This document shows, one piece after another, positions 3,688-26,052 of a stretch of DNA of 64,000 nucleotides (position 1 is its first letter; each line of letters opens with the position of its first letter). A program made the translations under genes and the position numbers. The DNA is from a virus (Duplodnaviria > Caudoviricetes). A model generated the notes under the pieces. The model worked only from the letters and a program-made list of their open reading frames with translations. It did not search any database and was not told the DNA's origin. The stretch spans positions 4,318-68,317 of IMG/VR virus record IMGVR_UViG_2896384573_000007; one strand, 5' to 3'.

Positions 3688-4444
3688 GGGGCGGGTCTCC
3701 CCACGGCTGATAATCCGGCGGCAGCGCGGGCGGATGGTCGATCAGCGTCTGGTGGCGCAGGTGCAGCACGGTGGCGAGCTGGTGGAGCCCACCATAGACC
3801 TCGCGCACCGAAAGCCGTCCGAGCATCTGGTGCAGGATCAGGTCGGGATGCAGGAACAGGCCGAGATGGTTGACCACCTCGCTCGGCCAGATCTGCATGC
3901 CGATGACGTCGCAATGCTGCCAGCGGTCGGTGACCTCGACGAAACCGGCCTTCTTGAACTGGCGGGTGATGATGTCCTGTCCGCGTTCCCACCACAGCCA
4001 TTGCCGGTCGAAGTCGGGGATGTCGATCCCGGCATAGTCCTTGATGCCGTCGCGGATGAGCCCGAAGCAGTCGTGCGTGCCCCATGCCCATTTCCTGCCG
4101 ACGAGCGGTGCGCGCCAGCCCGAGGGCTCGATGACGCCATAGGTGCCGAGCGGCCACGAGACGATCAGCCAAGGTTTGCGCGTCGCCTCGCACATGGCGC
4201 GGTCGGCGTCCGACGGAAGCGGCGGGCCGTAGACGTGGCTGTGGACGATGGCCTCGACGCCCGCCTTCTTCTCGATCTTGAGATAGGCCTTCATGTCCAT
4301 CACGAAGGTGTCGAACTGCGTCGCGCCGTTATCGATGGGGATGAATTCGCCGCCGGAGACGACGCCGCAGGACTCGAGCGGCTGGCAGGCCTCGGCGTGC
4401 TTCAGCGCCGCCTTGATGATCGTGTCTGCCGCCGCCCAGGCCAT
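3677..4444 (-). CDS. Tail assembly protein K (JAB/MPN + NlpC/P60)
   Basis: ESCG and IVHSH...PSDAD JAB motif; DCFGL and NHLGL NlpC/P60 motifs. Confidence 0.92.
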   Translation of the reverse strand: MAWAAADTIIKAALKHAEACQPLESCGVVSGGEFIPIDNGATQFDTFVMDMKAYLKIEKKAGVEAIVHSHVYGPPLPSDADRAMCEATRKPWLIVSWPLGTYGVIEPSGWRAPLVGRKWAWGTHDCFGLIRDGIKDYAGIDIPDFDRQWLWWERGQDIITRQFKKAGFVEVTDRWQHCDVIGMQIWPSEVVNHLGLFLHPDLILHQMLGRLSVREVYGGLHQLATVLHLRHQTLIDHPPALPPDYQPWGDPPHAR

Positions 4445-4447
4445 GGC

Positions 4448-5149
4448 TCATGTCCTCATCAGCAGCGACGCCGGGAAGGCCGAGGTTCTGAGCACGCCCT
4501 TCGCGCCGAAGCGGGCGCGGCAGGCGTCGAGCGTCTTGCGGCACTGGTCCTTGGCGGGATCGGTGGTGGGATTGCCGTAGACGTCCTCGACCGGCGGCCC
4601 CGCATAGGAGCACTCGGCGGAGCGGTAGGCCCACTGGCAGATGTCGGCGAGGACCTGCCTGCGCGGCAGCAGCACGCCATCGACGTCGAAGCGCACCGCC
4701 AGTTCGATCTCGACGAAGATCGGGTTTTCGGAGAGCTTCTTGGCGACATAGAAAATCTCGTCGGGGAAACCGGCGTTGGGGTTGGCATAGGGATTGCCGC
4801 CGGGAAAGTTCACGGCATCGAGGTATTTGCCGAACACTCGCTTGCGCGTGACCTTGGCATTCAGCGCGTCCGACATCGAGCGGAGATAGGCACCGAGCAC
4901 GCCGCCGGTATTGGCGGCTCTGACCGTCGGGCGCGGCAGCTTGCCCGCCGCCGACACTTCGAGGCCCTCGATCTCAATCGGAAACGGCTCGTAGGTGACG
5001 CCCTGCCAGGTGATCGGATTGCCGGTTTCGGTGGTGCCGGGATGCCAGCGAAACACCGTGGTGCCGCCAATCGGGCGGTCGTCCCAGACGAACATCTCGA
5101 CCATTTCGAGAGGGGCCAGCTGCTGGACGTCGTCGCGCGAGACCGTCAT
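4448..5149 (-). CDS. Minor tail protein L
   Basis: ITWQGVTYEPFPIEIEG, LPRPT and C-terminal Cys pattern CQWAYRSAEC...C.K...AC. Confidence 0.92.
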   Translation of the reverse strand: MTVSRDDVQQLAPLEMVEMFVWDDRPIGGTTVFRWHPGTTETGNPITWQGVTYEPFPIEIEGLEVSAAGKLPRPTVRAANTGGVLGAYLRSMSDALNAKVTRKRVFGKYLDAVNFPGGNPYANPNAGFPDEIFYVAKKLSENPIFVEIELAVRFDVDGVLLPRRQVLADICQWAYRSAECSYAGPPVEDVYGNPTTDPAKDQCRKTLDACRARFGAKGVLRTSAFPASLLMRT

Positions 5150-5532
5150 GCCGTCACTCCGTAGGCCAGAGTGAATTCCACCGACAGCGTGCCGCGCAGC
5201 TCGGTTCTAAGCCCGTTCACGCCGAAGCGCGCCCGCTGCCAATCGACCGTCCAGTCGTCGCACCAGACCTGATAGGCGACGCCGGTCGCCTGATCCCTGA
5301 ACGGAAAGGCGTTGCCGCGCTGTGCTTCGAGGTAGGCGGTCATGGCGTTGATGACCGTCGAGGTCTTCATCTCGAAGCGTAGGCTGAAGCGCCGCTCGAT
5401 GCTGTTGATGCCGTCGAGAATGCGCTGGGCATAGCCGTCGCCGAACTGTGCGGTCCTCAGACGTCTCGACGTCATCGACTGCGCCGGGAGCGCCGCGCAC
5501 CATTCCTTGTCGGTCCCGTCGAACGCCATCAC
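5146..5532 (-). CDS. Minor tail protein M
   Basis: AQFGDGYAQR..DGIN motif; directly after tape measure. Confidence 0.88.
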   Translation of the reverse strand: MMAFDGTDKEWCAALPAQSMTSRRLRTAQFGDGYAQRILDGINSIERRFSLRFEMKTSTVINAMTAYLEAQRGNAFPFRDQATGVAYQVWCDDWTVDWQRARFGVNGLRTELRGTLSVEFTLAYGVTA

Positions 5533-7721
5533 GCCACCTGCCTCAAGATGCCGCCGGGTTTCGATTCCTTGATGAGGATCGCCTGGACGGCCTTTTCGAT
5601 CTGCTGGCCGAGCCGCTTGCCGTCCTCGGTGGTCGCCGCCACCTGTCCGGTCGCCATGTCGATCCTGATGTCGCCGACCTGATTGTTGATCGTGGTGGAG
5701 CCGCCGATCTGCGCCTGCTGCTGTCCGGCGATGTTGGCGAGGCCGGAGACCTCGGCAGCCGACGGCGCTCTGATCATCCCCGAGGATGGTGTGTCGGCGT
5801 TTGCATTGAGGCCTGCAGGCGCGGTCGCGTTAAAGGCGCCGGGGAAGAGCCCGCCGAACAGCGGCTTCAGCACGTATTGCTGCAGCACGAGCTTGGCCAG
5901 ATCCTTGAGGATGTCGGCCAGCACGTCGCGGAAGTCCTCGCCCGCCATGGCGGCGTCCAAGAAACCCATGGCGGCGCTCTCGGCCCACGAGGCGAACGCG
6001 CTGTCCATTTCTTGCGCGGTCTGGTCCATCTCCGACAGATTGTCGTTCGCCGCTTCGGCGGTGGACGCCAGCTTGTCGGTGCCAACCGATGCCTTTTCCA
6101 TCGAGGTCTTGATCGTCTGTCCGGCCCGCTCGGTGGTCGCCGCCGCCTTCTCGACCTCCTTGGAGTATTCCTTCCAGCGGAACAGCACGGCGTCCATGGT
6201 GGCGACGAGACCGCCGCGCGTGCCGTTGTCGTTCGCCGCCCTCGGCGCGGCGCGACCGGCAAACGGCGAGTAGGGCGAGGTGGCAAGCGCACCCGCTGAT
6301 CGCATGAACGCGCCGCCGCCCGAGAACGGCACCGGCACCGACTGGCGCTGCTGTCCTGGAACCATGCCGCCTATCGCCTCGCCAGCCGACGCGGCGCGCA
6401 TGCGCTGCATCGCCTGATCGAACCAGTCGACGAAGGACTGGATCGCCGACTTCACCTTCTCGATGCCGGTTTTGATCGCCCCCAGCGCGGCGTTCCAGAC
6501 GGCGTTCCATCCGGCGATGGCTGCGGCGACGAGCTGATCGAACATCGCCTTGAAGGCAGCGACGGTCTCGGCAGCCGCGTCAGAGATGATCTTCGGCAGG
6601 TTGCGAACGATCTCGGCGACCTTGTTGATGTGCTGCGCCAGCGTGTTGACCATGGCAGGGAGCGCGGCTGTCGCCTGTTCGAAGGCGGTGCCGAGGCCGG
6701 TCAATTGAAGCCATGCGTCGTAGAGATTGCCCGCCGCCGTCGTGAGATTGCCCCACGCGGTGGCCATGGCCGAGTTCCACTTGTCGCTTTCTTCCGCCGC
6801 CCGTTTGTATTTCTCGATGGCGACGGCGAGGTCGTTGACGTTGATCGCCGCGCCTTCGAGCGCCTGATCGATCGCCGCCAGCGTCGCCATGTCCGCGCCT
6901 TCGAACAGCTTCTGCAGGAGCTGCTGCTGCTGCAACGGTTCAAGCAGCTTGTAGCTCTCCTGAATCGATGCCAGCAGCCGCGCCATCGACTCGGCCTTGG
7001 TCGGATCCAGCTGCGAAAGGTCACCGCCCAACAGCCGGATCGCCTCGGCCAGCTGCGCCGCATCCTCGCCGCCCGCCTTCAGCTTTTCCTGCAGCGGCCC
7101 GATGGCCGCAGCCATGTCGCTTGCCGCCTCTGCCGACAGACCGAGCGCCTCGCCGAGACCCTCGTAGGCTCTGAGCTGGCTCACCTCCAGACCAGCGGCA
7201 AATGCGCTGCGCATCGTCTCCGCCGCCGCTTCCGCCGCGCCGGTCACCTTGTCGAGGATCTTGCGGAACTGCTGGTAGATCGTCAGGCCGAGCGCCACGA
7301 TGGCTCCGACGGCGGTGAGCGACAGGCCGGTAATGAGCGCCGTTCCGATCATCCGGCCGGCGGAAAGCGCGATGCGCCCGAGACCGGCGAAGGCGCGCGT
7401 GAAACCGGCGGCGAGCGTCCTGCCAACGTTGGCCATGGTGCGCCCGAGCCGCTGCATGCGCGTCTCGATGATGGCGGTCGATTTCGAAGCGGTGAGCGTG
7501 GCGTCGCCGATGGCCTCGATGCCCTTCGCATCGGCAGGCGTCGGCAGCTTGTCCTTGACCGAGGCGAGACTGTCGCCCCAGAGCGAGGCCTGCTTCGCCG
7601 CGACATCGCTACTCTCGGCAGAGGCCTTGCCCAGCGCCTCGATGTCCTTTTCGAGATCCTTGATCCCCTTTTGCGCGTCGGCGGTGTCGGCTTCGACGTT
7701 GATTTCAAGCTTGTTGGCCAT
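5529..7721 (-). CDS. Tape measure protein (730 aa)
   Basis: Long Ala-rich helical protein, N-terminal LEINVEADT, located between chaperone genes and gene M. Confidence 0.8.
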   Translation of the reverse strand: MANKLEINVEADTADAQKGIKDLEKDIEALGKASAESSDVAAKQASLWGDSLASVKDKLPTPADAKGIEAIGDATLTASKSTAIIETRMQRLGRTMANVGRTLAAGFTRAFAGLGRIALSAGRMIGTALITGLSLTAVGAIVALGLTIYQQFRKILDKVTGAAEAAAETMRSAFAAGLEVSQLRAYEGLGEALGLSAEAASDMAAAIGPLQEKLKAGGEDAAQLAEAIRLLGGDLSQLDPTKAESMARLLASIQESYKLLEPLQQQQLLQKLFEGADMATLAAIDQALEGAAINVNDLAVAIEKYKRAAEESDKWNSAMATAWGNLTTAAGNLYDAWLQLTGLGTAFEQATAALPAMVNTLAQHINKVAEIVRNLPKIISDAAAETVAAFKAMFDQLVAAAIAGWNAVWNAALGAIKTGIEKVKSAIQSFVDWFDQAMQRMRAASAGEAIGGMVPGQQRQSVPVPFSGGGAFMRSAGALATSPYSPFAGRAAPRAANDNGTRGGLVATMDAVLFRWKEYSKEVEKAAATTERAGQTIKTSMEKASVGTDKLASTAEAANDNLSEMDQTAQEMDSAFASWAESAAMGFLDAAMAGEDFRDVLADILKDLAKLVLQQYVLKPLFGGLFPGAFNATAPAGLNANADTPSSGMIRAPSAAEVSGLANIAGQQQAQIGGSTTINNQVGDIRIDMATGQVAATTEDGKRLGQQIEKAVQAILIKESKPGGILRQVA

Positions 7722-7730
7722 CGTCCGCCC

Positions 7731-8177
7731 TCAATGCAGCATGCGGCCCACGGCCTCGGAGAGCCGCTTCTGCGCCGCTGCCAATGCCTGTGCGCGCTTC
7801 TCCGGCAACGCCCGCAGGAAGAACGGGACCGGCGACATGAAGCGCGAGCCGAACTCGAGGATGCGGGCGTACCAGGCACCACCGGCATTCTTCGGATTGA
7901 AGGCGATCTTGGCGCTGGTGATGGTGCCCTTGTTGGCTTCGACGAACGCGTAGATGCCCTGCGGGATCAGACCCTTGCGGACATAGACCCTGCCGGACGG
8001 CATCCGGTGCGGCCCCTTGGCCGAGTAGCCGACCTCGATGGCGTTCTGGATCGCGTCGTCGCGGATGACGTTGGCGGCTTCGGCCACCACGCCGCGCATC
8101 TCCTTCTCGGCGAGATATTTGGTATCGCGCTCGAGCGCCGCGACGATTTCGTCGGAGTTGACCTTGATCTTCAGCAT
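7731..8177 (-). CDS. HK97 gp10-like neck/tail protein
   Basis: WYARILEFGSRFMSPVPFFLRAL motif. Confidence 0.8.
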   Translation of the reverse strand: MLKIKVNSDEIVAALERDTKYLAEKEMRGVVAEAANVIRDDAIQNAIEVGYSAKGPHRMPSGRVYVRKGLIPQGIYAFVEANKGTITSAKIAFNPKNAGGAWYARILEFGSRFMSPVPFFLRALPEKRAQALAAAQKRLSEAVGRMLH

Positions 8178-8413
8178 CAGTGCCTCGTTGCGATTTTCGC
8201 CCCGAATATGGCGGCGATGTCCTGATCGCTGGCGGTGGCGAGATCGACTTCCTCGCCGGACGCCTGAATGCTCTTGCGCCTCGACGCCCTGCGCTCGTCC
8301 TCGGCGACCGCTTCGAAGTAGGCGCTCCAGCCCCTAAGCTCGTGCCATGTCATGCTCGCCGTCAGCTGCTCGACCGTCATGCCGAGCTTCAGCGCCAGGC
8401 CGAACACCGCCAT
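8177..8413 (-). CDS. Tail assembly chaperone, downstream (gpT-like) frame
   Basis: LALKLGMTVEQL...MTWHELRGWSAY pattern; frame is open upstream back into the A9 run. Confidence 0.65.
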   Translation of the reverse strand: MAVFGLALKLGMTVEQLTASMTWHELRGWSAYFEAVAEDERRASRRKSIQASGEEVDLATASDQDIAAIFGAKIATRH

Positions 8414-8783
8414 TGTCAGCGGCGACGGCCTTTCCTTTTTTTTTCGCCTTGGGCTGGTCTCCGTCCTCGTCGATGCCGAGCAGCCGGTTCATGGCAGGCT
8501 GGCATTGCGTCGCCAGCGCGAAGCAGACCGACGAGCCGAGTGCCTGGAGCTTCTCCCATTTGACCCGCTCGCCATCGATCCAGAGGAAGGCGGCGAGCAT
8601 CCTGAGCCCGTATTCCTGCGCGGTGATCGTGCCTTTCTCCTGCGCCAGATTGAGCTGCATGGTGTCCATGAGCGGCGGATCGCGCAGTTCGACGTCGAAG
8701 GTGATCGGCTCGCCTTCGGTCGGTTCGATCCTGATCGGCACGACCACCGAGCGCCGCGCCATGAGCCTGTCGAGCGTTCCCAT
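8334..8783 (-). CDS. Tail assembly chaperone (gpG-like)
   Basis: Directly after the tail tube gene, overlaps the gpT-like frame, contains the A9 run. Confidence 0.6.
   Translation of the reverse strand: MGTLDRLMARRSVVVPIRIEPTEGEPITFDVELRDPPLMDTMQLNLAQEKGTITAQEYGLRMLAAFLWIDGERVKWEKLQALGSSVCFALATQCQPAMNRLLGIDEDGDQPKAKKKGKAVAADNGGVRPGAEARHDGRAADGEHDMARA
8436..8444 (-). other. A9 homopolymer, putative programmed frameshift site
   Basis: Minus strand GCG AAA AAA AAA GGA at the G/T overlap. Confidence 0.6.
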
Positions 8784-8793
8784 GGCGAGCCTC

Positions 8794-9453
8794 TCAGCTG
8801 ACGATGAACAGCGGCACTTCGTTGACCACGGCTTCGCCCGAGAACGAGACCGCCTCGTTGGTCTCCATCGTCAGCGTGTAGCCGGAGATGGTGACCGGCA
8901 TGATGATCTCGCCGCGGTCGCCGGGAAGCACGATCTCCATCACCCGGCGCTGGCCGTCGAACACGGCGCTGCGCCATTCGGTCTGGGCGGCGACGTCGAG
9001 GTCGGTGAAGCCCTCGATGGAGATGTTGCCCGGTTGCGGCGTGCCAGCGAGCGACTCCGAGCCGCAGAAGGTGGTGACATCGATGGCGTCTGCCGCCTCG
9101 ACCTCCCATTCCCATGACGACAGGCAGAAGCGCAGAAGGTCGTCTGCCGAGATCGGCGTCGCCTTGCCGGTGGTGACCGTCGTCGTGTTGCCGGAAAGGT
9201 CAGAGCCGTCGAGCGTGAAGGTGTCGGCGGGCGTGCCGACCGACGAGATCGGGAAGGTCTTGCCGTCGAGCCCCGAGGAGGAGCCGGAGATGGTGACCAG
9301 CTGGCCCTCGGTGAAGTTGGTAATGTCGGCAGAGGCGACGGTGACGACCGCAGGCTTGGCATTGGTGATGTTGGTCACCGAGTAGCCGGTGGGGGCGGGG
9401 GTCGCGTATTTCTGCAGGTAGACCTCGGTTCCCTGTGCGGTGAATTTGGTCAT
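8794..9453 (-). CDS. Major tail tube protein
   Basis: MTKFTAQGTEVYL start, IDVTTFC motif, position upstream of chaperones. Confidence 0.8.
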   Translation of the reverse strand: MTKFTAQGTEVYLQKYATPAPTGYSVTNITNAKPAVVTVASADITNFTEGQLVTISGSSSGLDGKTFPISSVGTPADTFTLDGSDLSGNTTTVTTGKATPISADDLLRFCLSSWEWEVEAADAIDVTTFCGSESLAGTPQPGNISIEGFTDLDVAAQTEWRSAVFDGQRRVMEIVLPGDRGEIIMPVTISGYTLTMETNEAVSFSGEAVVNEVPLFIVS

Positions 9454-10038
9454 GGGGCGGTCCCTTTCGTGAAAGGAGGAGCGCCCAAAAAAATATTCCT
9501 ATGCCGGATGCGAATTTGACTGTGAAAAATTTACGGTTTCAAGGGGGGACGCTTGATCTAAGGCAAATCGGTATTCAGTGCGACCATCTTTGGTCGTTGA
9601 CACGACTGGTCACCACGCGGGCCAGCCGTACCGCCACAATCACTACGTCTCGGAATGATCTCAGAAGTGCCGCTTGTCGACTCCGACCGGGATTTCCGGT
9701 GCCGACCCCTTGCGGCCGTAGGGGACGAGGACCGGGAATGGCTCGATTGAGCCCGGTCCAGTCATGCCCGCCACGCTTCGCAAACGACCGCTGTGCATTT
9801 GCGTCCATAGCGGTCATCGCACCAATGCCGTCGGCGGCTCGACCAACCGGTCTGACGCTTGAACCCGCGCACCGCCAGCGCGAGTTCGGCAGGACGCGCA
9901 AGGCGCGCTACCAAGCGCAAATCTCCGTACGACCAAGGACGCATATCCGCAATATGCTCGACGATTAGCATTCCTTGTGATCCCAATAAGCCAATGAGCG
10001 ATGGACGACGGGGTTCCGTCTGCATCGACTGCATTGGA

Positions 10039-11421
10039 TTACTCGACCGCCGCAGGCTGACGATAGCGCTCCCGTAGGTGGACGGCTGTCTGATCGATGC
10101 TTGGATACACTGAGGTGGCATTAATATTGATCGCATCTAACTGGTCGAGAATGTGCTGTTTCCCGATAACCGTTATGCGCGCGATCTCTATGCCTTCCTG
10201 GCCAAACTCCGGCAGTGTGGCTTCATGGCCAAAAAGAAGAAAGGCTCCTGCCTGAGACTTGATCCTGGTGTTCGTACGTTTCGCCTTCACGCATACGATC
10301 GAACCCAGATCGTCCGGAACGATCTTCGGTTCGAAGAAGCCTTTCTCCGACTTGATGTGGTGCAGCAACTTTCCAGCCACCCCGGTCTCGTTGAATGTCT
10401 CAACATCCTGCGTAAGGTCGATTTCGTTTTTCTGCGGGTAGGTGAGATTTGAGAGATTGGCGATGCAGCTCACGGTATCTGAATCGTAGTATTTCACAGC
10501 ATCGCTTGAGATGCGGAAAATGATGACTTCTCCTTCGACACCCATGAGCTGCGGCGGACAATAGCAAGCGAAGAACAATGCCACCAGCGGATTGCTCGAG
10601 ATGTCGAGCAATCGCGTCGGAAGCCCATAATGCTGCATGCGGACAAGTCGGTCGAAGCAATATTGATCGCCGTGGAACTCGTCGTAATGCGCGATGAGTA
10701 GCTCCTTGCAGAGACGGTCCTCATTCGGCATAAATTGCCATCCCCCGTCCGGCCATTTCCGAAGAAGCGATGGCGTGAGTTCGAAGATCGCGTTCTCGTG
10801 GCCACGATAGAATGTTTCCACGTTATCCCTTGCTGGCAACTCTTGAAGGATTTTTAAGAAGGCTTCGACGCTATCCGCCGTGCCGACGATATTCTTCTTC
10901 TGCGGTGGAGGTTGCACGTTTGCCGCATCCATTCCGACGCCGTTCAAGTCCTCTAAGTCGTCGGCGAGCTCGGGTTTCCGCGCGACCAATCCATCCAAAA
11001 TCTGCTGGATATCTCCTTTTCGAACCGCCCAATGTGTCCGGTAGAGTTGAAACCCGTCGGCTGCGAAGAGCTCCTGCGCTTGGGTGACGCTGTCGAATTC
11101 CACTTCGCCAAAATCGATCAGGGTTTCGAAACGCGTCGTGACCTCCTTGCGGCCAGCCTCGACATTGGAAATTCGGCCGTAGCGAATGACCATCGACGCT
11201 CCGCCCTTCTCGCGAGAAATCTCGCTGCATAGGAACGTGGGCAATTTCTCCAGGTACGCGATTGATGTAGAGTCCAGCTCTTCCAAGCCCTTCGCAACAT
11301 CGGTCGGGGTGTATTCGAACATGCGTCCGCGGTTCATGCCAATCTGATCGACCTCGCCCTCGACATAGTCGCGATTGCCGAAGGCGATGAAATTGAAGTT
11401 CTCTGGCATCTGCCGGTGCAC
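10039..11421 (-). CDS. FRG-domain protein with an extra N-terminal domain (start may be ATG 11409)
   Basis: FYRGH, LTPSL, MQHYGLPTRLLDISSNPLVALFFAC, RIKSQAGAFLLFG motifs. Confidence 0.85.
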   Translation of the reverse strand: MHRQMPENFNFIAFGNRDYVEGEVDQIGMNRGRMFEYTPTDVAKGLEELDSTSIAYLEKLPTFLCSEISREKGGASMVIRYGRISNVEAGRKEVTTRFETLIDFGEVEFDSVTQAQELFAADGFQLYRTHWAVRKGDIQQILDGLVARKPELADDLEDLNGVGMDAANVQPPPQKKNIVGTADSVEAFLKILQELPARDNVETFYRGHENAIFELTPSLLRKWPDGGWQFMPNEDRLCKELLIAHYDEFHGDQYCFDRLVRMQHYGLPTRLLDISSNPLVALFFACYCPPQLMGVEGEVIIFRISSDAVKYYDSDTVSCIANLSNLTYPQKNEIDLTQDVETFNETGVAGKLLHHIKSEKGFFEPKIVPDDLGSIVCVKAKRTNTRIKSQAGAFLLFGHEATLPEFGQEGIEIARITVIGKQHILDQLDAININATSVYPSIDQTAVHLRERYRQPAAVE

Positions 11422-11677
11422 CTAGTTATTCCGCCCATTGGGCGATCGGGGAGGATGTGAAGCGAGTATGGCGGTCACAACGTATAGGCGAAAATACTTG
11501 CTCGCAAGACTTGCCTGTCGTCACCAATAGGCGCCCTCCACAGTCGTAACGCCAGCATTCGACGAGCTCGATTCTTTGAATACCGCAGCCCGATGGCGCG
11601 AAGGCTTAGGTATCAATTGCCAACCAATATCGTCACCGACTACGGATTAGCTGACATGGCGCCCGACGAACGATCAG

Positions 11678-12661
11678 ATGACGACAAATATCCCTGCTTG
11701 CCTAAACCTCGATGGAATACCTTCAACGTCGCCTCGAGGCGACGGTGTGCCTTATTTTAGCTTCGACCCGCAGGGTGCGTGGCGAGTGTCCCAAGGTAGT
11801 CGGCTTTACGATATCGAGAGCTGCTGCGTTCGCCTTCACGAGGCATTCAAGCAAGCGATCATGAAGGGGGTGAACTACTCGCAACTCATCTACGCGATCC
11901 CCGAGTTTGTGAGTGTCGCAGGCCATAACTCCGAAGCGAATTTGACACGCGAGCTTTTCGAACGGTTCCTTCGGGAGACTGCCGCGTTCCCAGAGATCAA
12001 TCGCTTCCTCTATCTGTATGATTGCCAGCACCTGGTAGCCTCCATCCAAGAATGTACAAAGGAGGTCGAGCAAGTCCTCGGCGAATTCTATCTAACATTC
12101 AACACGGAGAGCTTCTTCTTTCCGCCAATGCGACACGACGATGGGCTTCGGTATTCAACGTCTCCGGTGACGACAAAGCTCTTTGCATACCTGGGATTTA
12201 TGCTTATCAGGATGCACAGCCTGCTCGATTACACGGTGAAGGTAGCGTTCGAAGCCGAGCATCTTCGGCAGGACTTTTCCCGCTATCCGAAGCTAGCCAG
12301 CGGCAGCCTCCAATACGGTGATCGCAAACGCGTTGGCTTCAACAACGAATTAGGTACGCTCTTTGAGACATGCGAGTTCATGACGTTCGTTGAAACGCTC
12401 CGCAACCACGTCATCCACGATGGTCTGCTGGACGATATGCCGAAGGCATATGAGCACATCAAGGATGGCGTCGCAGTTGAGAAGTTTGTTCTTTTTCCCG
12501 ACATGACGAACGGCCGCTTCGATCGGTTCGTGAACCGGAATCTCTTCTTCGGCCGAGAGGACAAAATCAATCTGCGACTACCGGGATTGCTAGCCGACTT
12601 CCAGACTCGACAGGTCGCGACACTCGAACGCATCCTCGTCTCGCTCCAACAGCTCGCGTAG
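11678..12661 (+). CDS. Putative HEPN-domain RNase (Cthe_2314-like)
   Basis: Helical protein with SLLDY and Rx4H motif LRNHVIHDG. Confidence 0.6.
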   Translation: MTTNIPACLNLDGIPSTSPRGDGVPYFSFDPQGAWRVSQGSRLYDIESCCVRLHEAFKQAIMKGVNYSQLIYAIPEFVSVAGHNSEANLTRELFERFLRETAAFPEINRFLYLYDCQHLVASIQECTKEVEQVLGEFYLTFNTESFFFPPMRHDDGLRYSTSPVTTKLFAYLGFMLIRMHSLLDYTVKVAFEAEHLRQDFSRYPKLASGSLQYGDRKRVGFNNELGTLFETCEFMTFVETLRNHVIHDGLLDDMPKAYEHIKDGVAVEKFVLFPDMTNGRFDRFVNRNLFFGREDKINLRLPGLLADFQTRQVATLERILVSLQQLA

Positions 12662-12829
12662 ACGTCAGTGCGTAAAACCGACTGGGTGCAATCGCCGCAT
12701 TTCGATCGTTCGGGTTCGGGGCTCCATCCCTCAAACTGCTATGCGTCTCAATACGACACCCTTTCCAGTTGTAAATGTTTGCCACACATGTGAATAGTTC
12801 AGGAATTGACCGCTCCCCGAGGCCCATCC

Positions 12830-14839
12830 GTGCAGCAAATTGAAGTCAAAGTTGAAAACGACCACATTCAGCGGATTACTACCGCAAAACCCCTTGCAGC
12901 CATTTCTGAGCTAATCTGGAACGCTTATGATGCCGATGCGCGCGAAGTAAAAGTCGAACTCGAAGAGGGTCAACTCACCAAACTTGGCGTAATCCGAATT
13001 GTCGATGACGGCACGGGCATTCCTGCCGACGAGTTGGAGACGTGCTTTCAGTCGCTGGGCGGCTCTTGGAAAAAGCGCGCTGTGAAAACCGATGGTGGCC
13101 GTTCGATCCACGGCGAAAAGGGTCAAGGCCGCTTCAAAGCGTTTGCGCTCGGCGATCGCGTGACATGGGTTTCGCGCCATGCCGGGAAAAAGTTTTCAAT
13201 CAGTGGTGACAAATCGGACCTTAAACGATTTTCGATTTCCGACAGCGTGCCAGCAGCAAACACCGGCTGCACGGTAGAAATTGAGAATGTTGTTCGCGAT
13301 TTTGAGATTTGGGCTGAGGATGGCTTCGCGGAACAGCTGCGCGATGTGTTCGCCCTTCAACTCTATGAAGACACTCACTTCCGCATCATTTACGACGGCG
13401 AGGAGATCGACGCGCGAGAAGCCATTAGGGATGTGACGCCCTACCAGGTAATGGCGACCACCGAAGACGGCCACGAATACAAGGCGACGGTGGACGTTAT
13501 CGAATGGAAGAAGAAAGTCGAGCGCAAGCTGATGCTTTGCCTTCCTGGCCGTTTCAGCTTCCATGAAATGGCTCCGGGGATACATGCCCGTGGATTCGAC
13601 TTCACCGCGTATCTGACCGCCGAGCACTTCCAATCCCTTGCAGACGACAACACTGAAGGGCTAGTCGAACTCGACCCGCCGTCAATGGCACTCGTCGAGG
13701 CCGCGAAGGCGAAGTTGCGTGAGCACTTCCGTGTACGGGAAGCAGAACGCTCCCGCGGCAAGATTCAGGAGTGGAAAGAAGCTAAAATCTATCCCTACGA
13801 GGGGAAGGCGTCTGACCCCATCGAAATCAATGAGCGGCAGGTGTTTGATGTCGTCGCGCTGAATTTGGCCGACTACAGCCCTGACTTCGAGAAGGCGCCC
13901 TCGAAGCAGCAGAAGCTCATCCTACAACTCGTCAAAGCGGCCATTGAGACTGGCCCCGGCGCATTGCCGTCCATCTTGGAGAAGGTCGTTGATCTGCCCA
14001 AGGGCAAGCAAGAGGAACTGGCCGAACTGCTTCGGAAAACCTCGCTGACCGCCGTCATCAACGCTGCAAAGGCTGTCACTGACCGCCTTGAGTTTTTGCG
14101 CGCCCTGCAAATTCTGGTGTTTGACCCCGGCTCCAAACGCCAACTGCTCGAACGCTCGCAGCTACACCGGATCATCGCCCGAGAGACGTGGATTTTCGGC
14201 GAGCAGTTCAACCTGATGAATGACGACGAGGATTTATCGGCAGTCCTGCGCAGCCATATCCAGTTGCTAGGCAGCGATAGCGACGACGGCCCACATAGAG
14301 AAGGACTTGCGCCGAAGGAACCCGTCTTGGACGCAGAAGGCAAAGCAGCAATCGTTGACCTGATGCTTTCCTGCCGAGTGCCAACAGCGACTGACGATGA
14401 GCGAAAGCACCTCGTCATCGAACTGAAAAGGCCGAGTCAGAACCTCAACGAGGACGTGATCAACCAGATCAAAAAATACGCAAAAGCCGTTGCTCTTGAT
14501 GACCGGTTCAAGCACTCGAGAGTCGAATGGGACTTCGTGGCCGTCGCCAATCGCTTCACAAAAGACGCCGAATTTGAAGCGCGTCAAAAGGACAAGCCGC
14601 GGGGCATGGTGCTGGAGATCGATGACCCTATCAAGATCCGAGTCTGGGCCAAAACCTGGGGCGAGATCATCCAAGAGGCGGAAGGACGGCTGACTTTCTA
14701 CAAGCGGCGTCTTGAGTATCAGGCGAACGATAGAGAGGCGCTCCGATATCTGCGCACGATCAATTCTGATTATCTCAGCGACGAAGTCAAGGAGCGCATA
14801 TCGGCACTAGATGCGGAAGAACAAATCGCGGCCGAATAA
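12830..14839 (+). CDS. GHKL (MORC/MutL-like) ATPase fused to a C-terminal PD-(D/E)XK nuclease; GTG start inferred (ORF open from 12806)
   Basis: ELIWNAYDADA, DDGTGI, GEKGQGRF, GCTV boxes; C-terminal VDLML...VIELKRP...QIKKY. Confidence 0.82.
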   Translation: MQQIEVKVENDHIQRITTAKPLAAISELIWNAYDADAREVKVELEEGQLTKLGVIRIVDDGTGIPADELETCFQSLGGSWKKRAVKTDGGRSIHGEKGQGRFKAFALGDRVTWVSRHAGKKFSISGDKSDLKRFSISDSVPAANTGCTVEIENVVRDFEIWAEDGFAEQLRDVFALQLYEDTHFRIIYDGEEIDAREAIRDVTPYQVMATTEDGHEYKATVDVIEWKKKVERKLMLCLPGRFSFHEMAPGIHARGFDFTAYLTAEHFQSLADDNTEGLVELDPPSMALVEAAKAKLREHFRVREAERSRGKIQEWKEAKIYPYEGKASDPIEINERQVFDVVALNLADYSPDFEKAPSKQQKLILQLVKAAIETGPGALPSILEKVVDLPKGKQEELAELLRKTSLTAVINAAKAVTDRLEFLRALQILVFDPGSKRQLLERSQLHRIIARETWIFGEQFNLMNDDEDLSAVLRSHIQLLGSDSDDGPHREGLAPKEPVLDAEGKAAIVDLMLSCRVPTATDDERKHLVIELKRPSQNLNEDVINQIKKYAKAVALDDRFKHSRVEWDFVAVANRFTKDAEFEARQKDKPRGMVLEIDDPIKIRVWAKTWGEIIQEAEGRLTFYKRRLEYQANDREALRYLRTINSDYLSDEVKERISALDAEEQIAAE

Positions 14840-15272
14840 GCAGCACGAACTCCCAAGTGCCAACTTGGTAGTCCGCCCGCAGGCCTCCGGCCTCTTTTCG
14901 GCCCCGACCATGCCGCCAGTTAGATGCGACAGCGGCGGCTGCTTTCGGAAAGCCGCAGATAGCCAGGAAACGGATTGCGAGGGGCGTCGGAAGCCGTCAT
15001 AGAGGTATCCAGCGCTCGGCAGCTAACTCATTCTCGGTGCCTTTAACCGGACAGTCCGCTACGCCCCAAACACGTCATTCGGCAATCGGCTTGGCGACGA
15101 CCGCTTAGTCCGCATCTCGGCCATTCGGGCTTACCGCAGCAGACGACCGGTCACCACCCGATCGCGACAGAGAAGGTTCCAGCGCCATACCGCCCGAGCA
15201 AAGCAATGAGGATTCGGACACTGGGTTTTGGAGGGTGAACCCCTCTGATAACTGATGCCGTTAGCTTGATTG

Positions 15273-15650
15273 TCAGCCGTGCCCGGCTCCTATATTTTCC
15301 GTGACCAGCCGAAGCATGCGCACCTGCGTCTTGACGCCCGGTTCCTTCCGGCGATTGACGACGTCGATCAGGCTGTCTGGCGAGGCCGAGCCATAGGCAT
15401 GCGCGAAGGCCTCGATGCCGATCTCGCGGATGACGTGCTTTACCGCCACCCTGAGTTCCTGCCAGCTGATCGCGCTCTGGACAAGGCGCAGCGGTCGCTT
15501 CGGAGCGCCGAGCGCATCGGTCTCGGCGTTTGGATTGTTTACGAGTTCGAACAATGCTTTTTCGAGGATGCGCGCGGCGCGGGTGCGATCAGCGGCCATC
15601 GGAAACGACAGCGTCACGGCAATCATCGCTTCGTCCAGGCGGTCGCTCAA
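15273..15650 (-). CDS. Hypothetical protein
   Basis: TTG start overlapping the upstream TGA (alternative ATG 15626); part of ORF 15273-15767. Confidence 0.5.
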   Translation of the reverse strand: MSDRLDEAMIAVTLSFPMAADRTRAARILEKALFELVNNPNAETDALGAPKRPLRLVQSAISWQELRVAVKHVIREIGIEAFAHAYGSASPDSLIDVVNRRKEPGVKTQVRMLRLVTENIGAGHG

Positions 15651-15823
15651 TTCGGCTCGCTCTCCTTGACCACCGGCAGATCGCGCCAGAGATAGAACAC
15701 GGTTTTCGCGCCCTCGACATGGAACCGCTGCTGCAGGATGGGAGCGCCTTTGGTCTGCCTCTTCCATCGAAGCTCGGCGAGCGGCGTCAGGATCGCGCCC
15801 TTCGGAATGTCCTTCTCTTCCAT
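15647..15823 (-). CDS. Small hypothetical protein (58 aa, MEEKDIPKG...)
   Basis: GGAGGG RBS 7 nt upstream of ATG 15823. Confidence 0.5.
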   Translation of the reverse strand: MEEKDIPKGAILTPLAELRWKRQTKGAPILQQRFHVEGAKTVFYLWRDLPVVKESEPN

Positions 15824-15851
15824 TTCATCGCCCTCCGGCGGATAGCCATCT

Positions 15852-16238
15852 TCAGGAAAGCGCTGGAGAATAGTCCGCCACATCCCAGCGCTGCTGAACG
15901 CGCCAGCCCCGGCTGTCCTCGTCATAGTAGGAGATCTCCGAATCGAGCAGCGCGCCGCCTGCCGACGAGGCGACGATGTCGCGCAGCGCCACGCGGCCCT
16001 GATCGGCCAGCCGCCGCGCGCCCTCGGCGGTCTCGTCGTAATAGTCCACCTGAATGCCAGCGGTGGAGAGGTCGGTGTCGATGCCGCAGAAGCCGCCAAG
16101 CCAGACTGAGGCGACGCGGTTGACGATGACCACCGGCAGCGGCGCTGGGCGGTCGTCAGGCGGCTGCGGCTGCATGCCGTAATAGACCTCTGCGGAAAGC
16201 ACCGCGTCGAGCCGGTCAACGATATCCTTCTCGATCAT
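15852..16238 (-). CDS. Tail completion protein (DUF3168-like)
   Basis: VYYGMQPQ, LPVVIVNRV, IQVDYY motifs; follows the head-closure gene. Confidence 0.75.
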   Translation of the reverse strand: MIEKDIVDRLDAVLSAEVYYGMQPQPPDDRPAPLPVVIVNRVASVWLGGFCGIDTDLSTAGIQVDYYDETAEGARRLADQGRVALRDIVASSAGGALLDSEISYYDEDSRGWRVQQRWDVADYSPALS

Positions 16239-16585
16239 CGCTTCGCGCCTCCATGCTTGCAGACCAGCAAATAATCGCTGCGCTGCGCCGTCGGCTGGAC
16301 GCCGACGATCTCATAGATGTCGCCCCGGTCCACATCGACGAGCCGCCATGCCGGGTCGATGTTCTCGCCGGGAATTTCACGCACGCGGATGCGCGTCGAG
16401 CCCTCGGCCAATTCGGTGTTCATGGCGAAATATTCACGGCCATAGTCGCGGCCCGTCCCGGCTTCGAGGATCTGGCAATTCACCTCGGCGACCAGCTGCC
16501 ACGTTTTCTTCGCCGCGCCGAGCGCGTCGTCGCTGGTCACGAACCGCTCGATGCGCACCCGGTCTCTGAGCAGGCCCGCCTTCAT
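16235..16585 (-). CDS. Head closure / head-tail adaptor (SPP1 gp16-like)
   Basis: MKAGLLRDRVRIER start, IYEIVGV motif; ATGA overlaps at both ends. Confidence 0.82.
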   Translation of the reverse strand: MKAGLLRDRVRIERFVTSDDALGAAKKTWQLVAEVNCQILEAGTGRDYGREYFAMNTELAEGSTRIRVREIPGENIDPAWRLVDVDRGDIYEIVGVQPTAQRSDYLLVCKHGGAKR

Positions 16586-17286
16586 CCCTCCACCTCCTCG
16601 ACCATCACCTTGACCTCCACGCCCTTCGGCTTCTGGATCGTCACGAACACCGTCAGGGGCTGCGGCTGCGGTAGCCGCCGCGGCGCGGGACCGAGCCAGC
16701 GCAGCAAGTTGTCTTCCGTACCATTCCAGCGATTGCCGTCGACCGGAGCCGAACAGCCTTCGATGGATGCGTGATCGGTATATTGCCAGAGCGACCATGC
16801 GGGCCATGTCCCTTTCGGCCATGAAGGCTGCGCCTCCTCGGTGTAATGGGCGATCCACAGCGAGGTGTTGATCGCCAGATAACTGTTCTTGGAATCGCCA
16901 AGCTGGTCCTTGATGAGGTGGCCGCTGTAGATCGTGACCTTCAGGTCTGGGCGGGTCTCGCGAATGTACCTGACCGCCCGGATGAGCTGGTCGAGCGTCG
17001 CCTCCGCCTCGTGGTCGATCACCACGCGCTCGCCGCGCACCGGATCCGCGACCAGAAGATAGTGGGCCATCTCGGCAGCGGAATTGCCATGGAAGAAATG
17101 ATAGGAGGCGGTCGCCAGCCCAGCCGCCAAGGCGTTCTGCTTGCGTGGCTGGTAGGTGGGATCGACGTAGGTCTCGCCCTCGCTCGCCTTCATGATGACG
17201 CCGACAATGCCGCCAGCCTTGAGCGCCTCCCAATCGGGCTCGGGATTGTGGTGCGACAGGTCGATGACGAGAGTCTCGCAGGTCAT
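16582..17286 (-). CDS. GH25 muramidase (endolysin-like)
   Basis: IDLSHHN, KASEG, YHF, IDHE, LWIAHY, WQYT motifs; ATG 17286 overlaps the upstream stop. Confidence 0.9.
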   Translation of the reverse strand: MTCETLVIDLSHHNPEPDWEALKAGGIVGVIMKASEGETYVDPTYQPRKQNALAAGLATASYHFFHGNSAAEMAHYLLVADPVRGERVVIDHEAEATLDQLIRAVRYIRETRPDLKVTIYSGHLIKDQLGDSKNSYLAINTSLWIAHYTEEAQPSWPKGTWPAWSLWQYTDHASIEGCSAPVDGNRWNGTEDNLLRWLGPAPRRLPQPQPLTVFVTIQKPKGVEVKVMVEEVEG

Positions 17287-17843
17287 GCGCGTGGCACCCA
17301 GTAACCGGAGATGAAGCTGTTGGCATAGGCCATGACGTCGACGGCGGTGATTGCCGCCATTTCGCGGTTCTCGTAGAGGAAGGCACCGACCCGGAAACCG
17401 ATGTCGGTGATGCCAGGCGGCAGGTCGTCGGCGACCGAATAGCCGAGGGCGAGCATGACCGAACCAGACGACGGCCACGAGGCACCGGAGACCGGCTGCA
17501 GCCATTGCCGCGCCATCTGGTCGCTGCCGACGACACCGACAATCTCGTAGTCGCTAGAGACATCGGTTCCCTCGCCGTCGGTGACGACGAAGTCCTCGAC
17601 CGGCTGCATCGGGATCTCGATTTTTTCCGTCCCGCCTGCTGGCCAGTCCGGCTGCCAATCGTAGGCGACGGCGAAAACATGGAATTCGGTCAGTCGTTCG
17701 AAGACGTCGAAGGCCCGCACCAGCGCCTGCGTCAGATATTGATCGTCGCGCGTGAATTCGACCCGGCAATGAGTCTTGAAGGCCGGGAGTAGGGCGGTCG
17801 GAATGGTGGTGCGATCTACCGACGTGACACGCTGCAGCTTCAT
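17283..17843 (-). CDS. Head-tail connector (HK97 gp6 / phiE125 gp8-like)
   Basis: FKTHCRVEFTRDDQYL...LP.GI...VGAFLYENRE pattern. Confidence 0.8.
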   Translation of the reverse strand: MKLQRVTSVDRTTIPTALLPAFKTHCRVEFTRDDQYLTQALVRAFDVFERLTEFHVFAVAYDWQPDWPAGGTEKIEIPMQPVEDFVVTDGEGTDVSSDYEIVGVVGSDQMARQWLQPVSGASWPSSGSVMLALGYSVADDLPPGITDIGFRVGAFLYENREMAAITAVDVMAYANSFISGYWVPRA

Positions 17844-18058: not shown

Positions 18059-19369
18059 TCATGCTCCGATGTCGTCGATGGTCGTCGGGATGACGATCTC
18101 GACCCATTGGCCGTTGCGCCGCCCATAGAGCTTGCCGTCGTTCGGCGCGTCTGGGAATCCGGTCCCCGGATCACCCTTCGGCCCCTGTGGTCCCTGCGGC
18201 CCCATCAGGCTCTGGCCGGTATCGCTCCAAGCCGTGCCGTTCCACTGCCAGACGAAACCATCGGAACGGTCGAGGTAACTGTCGCCGATCTCGTTCCCTG
18301 CGCTAACAGGGTCACCATTGCCGGAATACATCGAAACGCCATCGGCACCCGGCGGGCCGGGTGGCCCTTGCGTTCCGGTAGTAAGATGCGCAAACAAGAC
18401 CTGTTGCTGCCAAGGAGGGACTGAATCACCGACAGCGACAAAGGCGACGGGAACAGAAAAATATCCGCCGGTCTCTTCGATGGCGTCGGCGGTCGCATCG
18501 TATTCGATCCAGCGGGCAGCCACGTCCTTGTCCTGAATCATCAATCGGTCGGCAGCCTTGATGATGCGCAGGAATGCAGCAACAGCCGTGCCGTTCGACG
18601 TCGTCGCACTGATCCAGAGTTCCGTCGCTGTTGTTGGTGGGGCGCTGTTGACCTGTATGTAGCCAACGGGCGGCGGTTCCGTCGTGTTGTCCCTGTAGAG
18701 ATATTCCATGACCGTGCTTGACTGACCGGACGCGCCTTGTGGCCCGGTCAGATTGTCGCCGGTATCGACCCATGCGGTGCCGTTCCATCGCCACAAGCCG
18801 CCATCGTCCCGGTCGAGCCAGGTATCACCGATCTCGTTTCCCGCCGCGACCGGATCGCCATCGCCGGAATACATCGACACGCCATCCATGCCTGCGGGAC
18901 CAGTCGCGCCGGTAGGCCCCGGATCGCCTTGCGGCCCTTCTGGCCCAGCCGGTCCCTGCGGCCCTTCTGGTCCGGTAGCGCCAGCCGGTCCTGCTGGCCC
19001 CTGCGGCCCCGGATCGCCCTGTGCGCCGGTTGCGCCCGCTGGTCCTTCCGGGCCTGCCGGTCCTTGCGGCCCCGGAGGACCGGGCGGGCCGGGGATGCCT
19101 TCGCCGCTGCCGCTGCCGCCTCCACCGGATGTCGTCTCGGCCTCGGCGAGTGGCTCCCATTGACCATTGCGGCGCGCGTAGGGCGTGTCATCGAGCGGCG
19201 CTTCCTCGACGAGCGGCGTGTCGCCGACAAAGAGCTTCAGCTGCTCGCGGTCGAACAAGAGATCATCGCTGCCCGAGAGCCTGCCGTCGGCCTCCCAGAC
19301 GGCGACCTGATTTTCCGACCCGGTCCCGACTATCGCCCGACGGCGCATGGAAAGCGGCTGGTCGTTCAT
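18059..19369 (-). CDS. Collagen-like virion protein with duplicated modules
   Basis: GxP triplets; two GVSMYSG.GDP...WNGTAW modules and two AP.D...Y.RRNGQW motifs. Confidence 0.8.
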
Positions 19370-20811
19370 CCGCGCTCTCCATGGTAGCGATCAAAGGCCG
19401 GAGTGAGATCGATGGCGACGGCGCGGCCATCGTCGAGCACGAGCTTCAGCGTGAAGCCGTCACAGATGCCGCCCTTGACGCCGATCCCCGGTTTTCCCTG
19501 CGGGCCTCGCTCGCCCGGTCTCCCTTTGCTGCCCGCTCTGGCGGCGAGCATCCAGTCGTCACCCGGCAACGGCCCCGGAGCGTCGCGGCGGGCGATCCAT
19601 TCCGAACCGTCGAAGGCGACCCGGTCGAGCTTGCGGTAAATTCCCTTCGGATCGTAAAAGCCGCAGGCCTCGCCGCAACAGGCGTCGGCTCCCTTCATCG
19701 CAACGCAAGCCCAGTCGTCGTGCGGCGGGCGACGGGCGGTGTCGCGACGGGCGCAATAGGTCGAGCCGTCGCAATGGACCAGTTGGCCCTCGTGATGGAC
19801 AGCCTCCTCGGTCCAGTCCTGTGGCGGCGCGAATTTGCCCGGATCGCCTTTCTCGCCCTTGTCGCCCTTCGGACCTGCTGGTCCCGGTTCGCCGCGGAGC
19901 CCGCGCGGCCCTGTTTCCCCTTGTGGTCCAAGCTCGCCGCGCTCGCCGGGGTCTCCCTTGTCGCCACGTTCGCCTTTTTCACCGGGTGGTCCGCGCTCGC
20001 CGTCTTTACCCGGTGCGCCGTCGGCCCCATCTTTACCCGGCAGGCCGGGATCACCCTTGTCGCCGCGCTCGCCTTTTTCACCGGGTGGTCCGCGCTCGCC
20101 GTCTTTACCCGGTGCGCCGTCGGCCCCATCTTTACCCGGCAGGCCGGGATCACCCTTGTCGCCGCGCTCGCCTTTTTCACCGGGTGGTCCGCGCTCGCCG
20201 TCTTTACCCGGTGCGCCGTCGGCCCCATCTTTACCCGGCAGGCCGGGATCACCCTTGTCGCCGCGCTCGCCTTTTTCACCGGGTGGTCCGCGCTCGCCGT
20301 CTTTACCCGGTGCGCCGTCGGCCCCATCTTTACCCGGCAGGCCGGGATCACCCTTGTCGCCGCGCTCGCCTTTTTCACCGGGTGGTCCGCGCTCGCCGTC
20401 TTTACCCGGCGCGCCGTCGGCCCCATCTTTACCGGGCAGGCCGGGATCGCCCTGTTCGCCGCGCTCGCCCGGTTCGCCGCGAGCGCCGGCCGGTCCCGGT
20501 TCGCCCGGTGGGCCGGGATCACCCTGAAGTCCCGGCTCGCCTCTTTCGCCAGCTTCGCCGCGCTCTCCCGGTTCTCCCTTGTCGCCACGTTCGCCTTTTT
20601 CGCCGCGCTCGCCCTTTTCCCCCGGCGGTCCCGGCTTGCCGTCCTCGCCATCGCGGATCGCTGCAACGCGCTCGGAAAGATCGAGCACCATTGTCTTGTG
20701 CTCGGCGCGCATTTCGGCGATGGCGCGACCCACCATGTCGGCCAGCCGGTCACGCTCCTCGCGAAAGCGGCGACCGATATATTCCCCGAATTCCCTAAGC
20801 GGCGCGCTCAT
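19366..20811 (-). CDS. Collagen-like protein with long Gly-X-Y tract
   Basis: Likely start MSAPLREF at 20811 overlapping the portal end; continuous GXY repeats. Confidence 0.8.
19955..20449. repeat. Five tandem 99-bp (33-aa) coding repeats
   Basis: caggccgggatc recurs at 20041, 20140, 20239, 20338 and 20437; unit [33 protein letters not shown]. Confidence 0.95.
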
Positions 20812-25903: not shown

Positions 25904-26052
25904 GATGGGTTGCTGTCCTCTGTGGTTGGGATTGGTGGTTCGGTCGTTTCCTCGGCGGCTTTCCGCTTCGCTCGGTGCCATCGCCATAGGGCGATCAGAG
26001 CGGCGGGCGGGAAGATCGCCCACAACACGATGAAGATGAAAAAGCGCTTCAT
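25900..26052 (-). CDS. Small membrane protein (50 aa)
   Basis: MKRFFIFIVLWAIFPPAALIALW; ATGA coupling. Confidence 0.5.
   Translation of the reverse strand: MKRFFIFIVLWAIFPPAALIALWRWHRAKRKAAEETTEPPIPTTEDSNPS

Follow-up and report, generated by a model that had tools for sequence, protein, structure and literature searches.

The window analysed here is a stretch of 64,000 nucleotides (C192:90013-154012 in a 7.7-Mb genome; all coordinates below are window positions), in which positions 1 to ~32000 make up the minus-strand late region of a lambda-like siphovirus prophage of Ensifer, a soil bacterium. The closest relative with the same prophage is Ensifer sp. IC3342 (hereafter G018), the only genome returned by a scan of genome contigs. 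Between a small phrog_24983-like gene and the major tail protein gene, the late operon is interrupted by an insert of ~5.75 kb (~9541-15293), which carries three large open reading frames (ORFs) encoding an FRG-domain protein, a HEPN-like protein and a GHKL ATPase-nuclease (Table 1). The last two are antisense to the late operon, and GC content is 0.52-0.57 across ~9900-15000, against 0.62-0.67 in the flanking late genes. We show that the content of this slot differs between related prophages, and argue that it is likely to be a defence hotspot in the late operon, filled in the window by three horizontally acquired cassettes which probably work independently of each other.

Table 1. Coordinates of the slot, its cargo and the late operon, the latter listed in the direction of transcription
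Feature	Position	Strand	Remarks
Native region upstream of tail gene	9454-9540	-	starts with distal core copy GAAACCGTAAAT at 9529-9540; kept in every relative, including empty sites
Distal non-coding spacer	9541-9828		flat third-position GC; unlike any other cargo or locus compared
FRG cassette	9829-11590	-	gene with ~170 bp of upstream and ~210 bp of downstream sequence
FRG gene	10039-11421	-	460 aa; N-terminal ~175 aa uncharacterised, C-terminal FRG domain
Divergent intergenic region	11422-11677		between FRG and HEPN-like genes; FRG cassette homology reaches 11590
HEPN-like gene	11678-12661	+	327 aa; probable HEPN-type RNase (Cthe_2314-like), candidate single-gene defence protein
GHKL-nuclease cassette	12760-14960	+	one gene and short flanks, moved as a unit
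GHKL-nuclease gene	12830-14839	+	GHL/GHKL ATPase, predicted middle domain, predicted C-terminal Shedu-like PD-(D/E)xK nuclease
Proximal non-coding segment	15154-15293		common only to the G018 prophage, whose cargo differs
Proximal junction core copy	15294-15308	-	CTGGTCACGGAAAAT; junctions of five loci compared, relatives diverge right after
Large terminase	31961-30225	-	
Protease-major capsid fusion	24524-22584	-	
Portal	22207-20795	-	
Collagen-like fibre proteins	21132-18059	-	two (436 and 588 aa); many PHROG tail-fibre families
Head-tail adaptor	17843-17283	-	
GH25 muramidase	17505-16582	-	Pfam Glyco_hydro_25, E 4e-29; PHROG endolysin
Head closure	~16585-16238	-	
Tail terminator	15852-16238	-	phrog_347, E 3.5e-7; phrog_123, E 3.8e-6; upstream core, outside cargo
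phrog_24983-like small gene	15273-15767	-	phrog_24983, E 9.4e-66; proximal flank of hotspot
Major tail protein	8794-9453	-	phrog_584, E 1.3e-31; distal flank of hotspot
phrog_22615 gene	8783-8334	-	after major tail gene
Tape measure	7721-5529	-	
M/L/K/I/J-like tail tip genes	5532-2	-	

A variable slot in the tail operon

An initial annotation of this DNA had placed defence-like cargo at 9460-15270, between a DUF3168-like gene and the tail tube gene, and had described three large, less GC-rich genes, two of them transcribed against the late operon, together with two small genes. The interruption is real, as are the GC drop and the positions and strands of the large ORFs, but the variable segment is slightly shifted (~9541-15293). 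PHROGs identify the flanking genes as the tail terminator and the major tail protein, although Pfam gave no DUF3168 match for the former. As for the small genes, the one at 15273-15767 is genuine; it is also present in G018, in a second genome of the same genus (G002) and in IMG/VR relatives, and is a conserved core phage gene outside the cargo. The other small ORFs of the region (9501-9968 and 9762-10136) show, whatever the frame of the six, a flat third-position GC (0.60-0.61, against 0.90 for the tail gene) and match no family in Pfam, PADLOC or PHROGs; we therefore do not consider them as genes.

We compared eleven loci, namely the window and ten related prophages (those of G018 and G002, and eight IMG/VR contigs). 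The flanks of the window share 90-93% nucleotide identity with G018 and 75-76% with G002, and their alignments stop at 9547, to resume at 15154 in G018 and at 15292 in G002. The proximal segment from 15154, where the blastn match to L004 resumes, shows a 78% match over ~90 bp. The phrog_24983-like gene and the major tail gene bound the slot in all of the ten other loci but one (L021), which ends before the upstream flank; identities are 59-96%. The major tail protein gene is 73-96% identical in the relatives, and the tail terminator gene 59-90% identical across the ten related loci, the upstream part of L021 being missing.

Measured from the phrog_24983-like gene to the tail gene, the gap is 72 and 71 bp in two prophages (L023 and L024), which are empty, 1.38 kb in L019 (a single 401-aa protein of no family), 2.0 kb in L017 (GajA only), 2.1-2.3 kb in G018 (a REase-ARP nuclease; PF22558, E 7e-25), 3.97 kb in G002, L018, L020 and L022 (GajA and GajB, that is, a complete Gabija system), at least 3.2 kb in L021 (a P-loop/HEAT STAND-like protein of at least 852 aa and a 147-aa ORF) and 5.8 kb in the window, whose trio of genes occurs in no other compared locus. 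The two genes of the Gabija cargos are adjacent and were recognized both by PADLOC (GajA: PDLC00086, E ~1e-267; GajB: PDLC00104, E ~1e-235) and by Pfam (AAA_15, OLD-like TOPRIM and UvrD-helicase). As Gabija-bearing copies have 99-99.5% identical cargo, they count as one state. GC content of the cargo is 0.53-0.55 in all cases, against 0.62 in the flanks. The only sequence common to all cargo types is the distal ~87 bp next to the tail gene; the window and G018 additionally share ~90-140 bp at the proximal end.

Prophages sharing both flanking genes thus carry different cargo at exactly the same site, and two of them carry none; no relative has the three genes of the window as invariant core genes. 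PADLOC matched Gabija, GajA alone and, in the window, the candidate system PDC-S15. The hotspot which the initial annotation had proposed is therefore supported as a real, variable slot of the tail operon, whose defensive nature is predicted from gene content. Neither a megablast search with positions 8000-17500 nor a tblastn search with the tail protein found a match in the phage collection, from which this prophage lineage is thus absent, and a search of 399 genomes with the tail protein returned no further relatives at E <= 1e-10.

Three of the other cargos deserve separate mention. In L017 (3183-4940), GajA stands alone, as a deletion reaching the proximal junction has removed GajB and the first ~1.96 kb of the Gabija cargo; this locus is a deletion derivative with a decaying Gabija system. 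The 401-aa protein of L019 (8653-9858) has no match in defence catalogues, HEPN_Toprim_N being found at a very weak level (E 0.12). Similarly, the STAND-like protein of L021 (2-2559) combines a P-loop with HEAT repeats and matches no catalogued defence protein. Both are candidates for new defence genes.

The junctions are the same whatever the cargo. At empty sites, the phrog_24983-like ORF extends at its 3' end across one ACCG(A/G)(T/A)AAT element into TTTCACAGTC..., the native sequence that precedes the tail gene. Occupied loci all agree in their two junctions and have a core of ~9-15 bp (ACCG[A/T]AAA[T/C]) in duplicate, of which empty sites have one copy: the first copy, ..CTGGTNACSGAAAAY, precedes the cargo, and the second, ..GRRACCGTAAAT and then TTTCACA, follows it. 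In consequence, the phrog_24983-like gene takes its last ~6 codons from the cargo side, and the C-terminal tail of the small protein varies with the cargo.

The duplicated core may mark a site-specific mechanism or be the relic of one early insertion followed by exchange via the conserved flanks. No recombinase is encoded in any cargo of the compared loci, and a pattern scan of IMG/VR DNA with the junction core returned two extra contigs, both AT-rich chance matches without related genes. It seems rather unlikely that the slot is a dedicated exchange site, att-like or integron-like, into which a putative recombinase would load single-gene defence cassettes, and not just a passive gap that tolerates recombination. 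In that case, the unannotated occupants of the slot (the 401-aa protein in L019, the STAND-like one in L021 and the 327-aa HEPN-like protein in the window) would represent new anti-phage genes.

The three cargo genes of the window

The initial annotation had recognized effector-type motifs in all three large genes. Pfam recovers the FRG and GHKL domains, and the residues of the HEPN Rx4H motif and of the nuclease D...ExK motif are invariant among homologues; the HEPN fold is a probable one.

The largest gene most likely starts at GTG 12830, which yields a protein of 669 aa, the length of its homologues; the ORF itself (12806-14839) opens at TTG 12806 (677 aa). The protein matches HATPase_c_3 in Pfam (E 7.4e-17), and its N-terminal ~350-380 residues model as a GHL ATPase followed by a middle domain. 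Foldseek searches with this model found TRAP1 N-M, MutL N40 and MORC (E ~1e-10 over ~280-440 columns). As the predicted local distance difference test (pLDDT) score of the AlphaFold model, which is ~60-90 up to residue ~380, falls below 50 in the C-terminal third, the nuclease was judged by profile methods. The family is large, comprising no fewer than 914 clusters (50% identity, E <= 1e-30), and its members have a uniform length of ~650-690 aa. In an alignment of 57 members (32-43% identity; residues numbered from the 677-aa start), the ATPase residues E35, N39, D42, D67, G69, G103 and G108 are invariant, and so are E449, R450, D518, E539, K541 and Q554 in the C-terminal part, where D518, E539 and K541 form the D...ExK motif. 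A Pfam scan of these members gave nothing but PD-(D/E)xK families for the C-terminus, namely HSDR_N_2 in 14/57, and SduA_C (1/57, E 0.0013), PDDEXK_9, NucS_C and VRR_NUC once each. Finally, when the C-terminal profile of the family was compared with ten canonical Shedu SduA_C domains using hhalign, the two aligned with a probability of 86.5% (E 4.6e-6) over the ExxWxFG, D(L/F)(M/L) (DLM) and E(L/I)K(R)P (ELKRP) blocks. PADLOC gave weak REase_II matches only, to the GHKL part.

By its predicted domain content, the protein fits the paraMORC3 or Shedu type I-D class, resembling VcSduA, and so would not represent a new family. paraMORC3 proteins combine GHKL and S5 domains with a nuclease of restriction-endonuclease fold bearing E-D-ExK motifs, and occur as stand-alone proteins in Proteobacteria (Iyer et al. 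2008; PMC2292703). A validated Shedu type I-D protein, VcSduA, confers resistance to T1-like phages, which is abolished by the E27A or the K557A mutation (PMC12137116). Like both, the window protein is a stand-alone protein of ~650-690 aa with intact GHKL motifs, a predicted clamp-like middle region and a predicted C-terminal PD-(D/E)xK nuclease with E-D-ExK signatures, and its family is found sporadically in Proteobacteria; counted from the 669-aa start, its E35 becomes E27, the number of the catalytic glutamate of VcSduA. The comparison is one of architecture, as the link with VcSduA lies at the profile-profile level, below SduA_C and Shedu thresholds, and the genomic setting differs, VcSduA being encoded in the VSP-II island and the window protein in a prophage tail operon. 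Tiamat (TmtA; bioRxiv 10.64898/2026.09.30.754977) also combines a GHL ATPase and a C-terminal PD-(D/E)xK nuclease in one stand-alone protein, proposed to act as an ATP-driven dimeric clamp nuclease, but it has a long central DUF3684 and a DUF3883 nuclease where the window protein has a predicted MutL/MORC-type middle region. Neither domain was found by Pfam in the window protein or in the 57 members (E <= 0.01), PADLOC gave no Tiamat match and the protein is only 669-677 aa long, which rules out that it is Tiamat.

The gene has moved together with short flanks: positions 12760-14960 are 90.5-91.0% identical at the nucleotide level to the Agrobacterium fabrum chromosome (L008-L010), where the GHKL gene is solitary, with a type IIG/MmeI-like system on one side and SIR2-HerA on the other. 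Other homologues lie beside a pP_pnuc gene or in an AbiJ-NTD island, with no conserved partner, and neighbours differ between Agrobacterium, Roseibium, Magnetospirillum, Pasteurella phage Pmp14 and the window. In Pmp14 (OR544131.1), an unrelated siphovirus, ~5.7 kb of hypothetical genes (3901-9638) lie between the tail chaperone and tape measure genes and include a homologue 36% identical to the window protein. Tail-operon cargo may be common.

The FRG protein matches Pfam FRG (PF08867, E 1.2e-16; 61.9 bits for a cut-off of 25), the PADLOC candidate PDC-S15 (PDLC04936, E 4.1e-98, residues ~180-454) and, over nearly its full length, phrog_4962 (E 4.5e-60). FRG has been placed in the ADP-ribosyltransferase superfamily and predicted to be an NADase-type immune effector (Aravind group; PMC9503650). 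The protein family is widespread, its members being ~455-470 aa long, and F204, R206, G207, H208 and a QHYxLPTRLLD block are invariant. No family was matched by the N-terminal ~175 residues, and PDB sequence searches with the whole protein gave chance-level matches only. As with other PDC-S15/FRG proteins, a single gene is involved and homologues are found in defence islands. The cassette (9829-11590) shares 84-91% nucleotide identity with a Sinorhizobium meliloti contig, in which the FRG homologue adjoins RES, Piwi (pAgo) and DpnII-MboI genes; in Bradyrhizobium, it adjoins a Shedu-like gene.

The 327-aa protein matches phrog_31026 (E 2.9e-45). It has 363 homologues at E <= 1e-5, mostly 320-340 aa long and unannotated, except for two which UniRef calls 'Cthe-2314-like HEPN'. 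It carries the Rx4H motif RNHVIH, of which R242, N243, I246 and H247 are invariant in 41 homologues (50-82% identity). The nearest Pfam-bearing Atlas cluster carries PF18730 (HEPN_Cthe2314), which with a score of 0.87 is a lead only. The AlphaFold2 model is mostly helical (pLDDT 88), and the top 40 VIA matches include the HEPN chains 7ae2, 5yep, 4nqf, 1ylm, 3o10 and 9oik (Z 6.0-7.4, residues ~112-325). PDB sequence searches with the protein and its profile gave no useful match, and no PF18730 member was found in a search of 401 genomes and controls. Given the motif, along with weak fold and profile evidence, this is probably a HEPN protein.

It is comparable to Tha, a prophage-encoded HEPN defence protein of Staphylococcus aureus phages (PMC11087260), and to HepS of Gifsy-1 (PDB 9oik), in being a single HEPN-motif protein on a temperate phage. 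Tha and HepS are activated by tail proteins of incoming phages. HepS is among the structural matches of the window protein (Z 6.0), but neither Tha nor HepS has detectable sequence similarity to it, and its own HEPN fold is putative. In one genome, the neighbours of homologues are IS21, Gabija and a reverse transcriptase, while in Paraburkholderia the setting is a small integrative element. The gene matches a Rhizobiaceae genome at 74% nucleotide identity, over the coding region only.

A probable defence hotspot and the alternatives

Prophage and satellite defence hotspots are known from the P2 and P4 elements of E. coli (Rousset et al. 2022; PMC9122126). The Ensifer slot resembles these in several respects, as far as sequence comparison goes: conserved core genes flank a variable slot, the content is enriched in known or candidate anti-phage systems, cargo GC is below that of the phage backbone and most cargo genes are antisense to the phage operon. 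It differs in belonging to a lambda-like siphovirus of Ensifer, in lying within the late tail operon and in the short duplicated core that flanks the cargo. We thus regard it as a new example of a known phenomenon, the prophage defence hotspot. We found no description of an Ensifer tail-operon hotspot in the searchable literature, which does not prove that none exists. Its occupants in the window would be one member of a validated family, one catalogued candidate and one uncatalogued, probable HEPN protein. If they act against phages, the GHKL-Shedu protein would be an ATP-gated dimeric clamp that cuts invading phage DNA, the HEPN-like protein an RNase that stops infection once activated, and the FRG protein an effector whose N-terminal domain is perhaps a sensor and whose C-terminal FRG domain would cause NAD+ depletion or ADP-ribosylation.

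Several points weigh against this interpretation. PDC-S15 is a computational, unvalidated candidate (we found no experimental validation in the literature), and the family of the 327-aa protein is likewise an unvalidated defence candidate. The latter scores 12.3 bits against PF18730, below the cut-off of 27.1 (E 0.17), Foldseek found nothing for its model at E <= 0.001, and VIA Z scores of 6.0-7.4 are within helical-bundle noise, as unrelated bundles score alike. For the GHKL protein, the low pLDDT concerns precisely the presumed nuclease, and the protein itself has no direct match to Pfam SduA_C or PADLOC Shedu. In addition, nuclease, RNase and NADase effectors borne by a prophage pose a self-toxicity problem at induction. 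Finally, eleven loci make a small sample, several of them near-identical Gabija copies, and represent only six independent states.

The insert might instead be moron cargo with a role other than anti-phage defence, such as lytic counter-defence, exclusion of plasmids or mobile elements, host fitness or symbiosis. Late expression of the FRG gene is conceivable, as it is co-oriented with the late operon and immediately upstream of the tail gene; some phages have NAD- or ADP-ribose-related genes that serve as counter-measures (PMC9503650), and neither PDC-S15 nor the HEPN-like family has a known phenotype. However, the same slot holds a complete Gabija system in four relatives, homologues of all three genes are found in chromosomal defence islands rather than in phage lytic modules, and the GHKL-Shedu architecture has already been validated as defence, so that we consider a non-defensive role unlikely.

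Nor is it at all probable that the slot reflects a single ancient insertion, decayed or partly deleted according to lineage, with empty sites resulting from precise deletions. All occupied loci do share identical junctions and the duplicated core, and the content of L017 clearly derives from the Gabija cargo by deletion. Yet the five cargo types have nothing in common beyond the junction-proximal ~90-140 bp, decay cannot convert Gabija into FRG, HEPN and GHKL genes, and two cassettes of the window are ~90% identical at the nucleotide level to loci in other genera, which indicates recent acquisition.

Loci carrying a homologue of one cargo gene were found to carry no homologue of either of the other two. 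Close homologues (90-97% amino-acid identity) are found in other genera, among them Agrobacterium, Celeribacter, Paracoccus and Roseibium, while within the genus the three genes have matches in 2/31, 0/31 and 1/31 other species, all of them distant. The initial annotation had suggested one to three anti-phage systems; the three genes are independent modules, homologues of which sit alone in defence islands elsewhere. That the 327-aa and 677-aa genes form one two-gene system, with a HEPN effector and a GHKL ATPase-nuclease sensor, was rejected as highly improbable for lack of co-occurrence: they are adjacent, on the same strand and 144 bp apart, and no antitoxin or regulator specific to the HEPN-like protein is evident, but tblastn searches with the 327-aa protein around GHKL homologues gave no match in any of seven loci (one of them 96% identical), the reverse search gave the same result, homology with the Agrobacterium GHKL cassette begins at 12760, past the end of the HEPN gene, and phage records with a GHKL homologue contain no match to the 327-aa protein.

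Temperate-phage hotspots have been productive for finding new immune systems, and the defence hotspot proposed here extends this idea to rhizobial (Ensifer/Sinorhizobium) prophages. It provides testable candidates, namely the FRG protein (PDC-S15), the Cthe_2314-like HEPN family with its hundreds of homologues, the 401-aa protein and the STAND-like NTPase. The position of the slot implies that the phage must tolerate several kb of foreign, mostly antisense DNA in its tail operon, and a putative paraMORC3/Shedu-type GHKL nuclease is found in tail operons of phages from two unrelated hosts, Ensifer and Pasteurella. Prophage-borne defences in rhizobia also bear on the phage sensitivity of inoculant strains.

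Transcription and other features of the late operon

As the slot lies inside the late tail operon, late transcription would have to cross the 5.75 kb of cargo, either by reading through it or by restarting. The ~87 bp upstream of the tail gene are conserved in all relatives, including the empty ones, and are therefore the native leader rather than a cargo-borne promoter. In lysogens, the cargo genes would be expressed from the divergent region at 11422-11677, which we infer to contain the promoters of both the FRG and the HEPN-like genes, and from near 12760 for the GHKL cassette. A scan for consensus promoters and terminators was uninformative, as counts equalled the shuffled expectation (4 versus 2.8, and 6 versus 6.2). 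A palindrome (CCTTTC-N2-GAAAGG, at 9454-9480) overlaps what is likely to be the ribosome-binding site of the major tail gene and is conserved in most relatives, including one empty site; it could regulate translation of that gene.

Farther upstream, the two collagen-like repeat genes, located between the portal and adaptor genes, have a GC content of 0.69-0.70 and a strong AT skew, and the region 18059-21132 aligns to the relatives at ~71-72% only. The GH25 muramidase gene lies among head-tail connector genes and overlaps the adaptor ORF, in a segment that aligns to both G018 and G002; its product may act as the endolysin of the phage or as a lysin associated with the virion. A second low-GC stretch between the genes for terminase and capsid (~26400-28800; GC 0.54-0.59), whose ORFs have no Pfam match and which is adjoined by DUF3085 (25514-26023) and DUF6283 (24871-25350) genes, may be a further accessory slot. 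Finally, a gene located upstream of the terminase (32457-33689, minus strand) encodes a fusion of a DNA methyltransferase with a ParB-like nuclease domain (phrog_498, E 1e-136; phrog_620), which may be a phage anti-restriction methylase.

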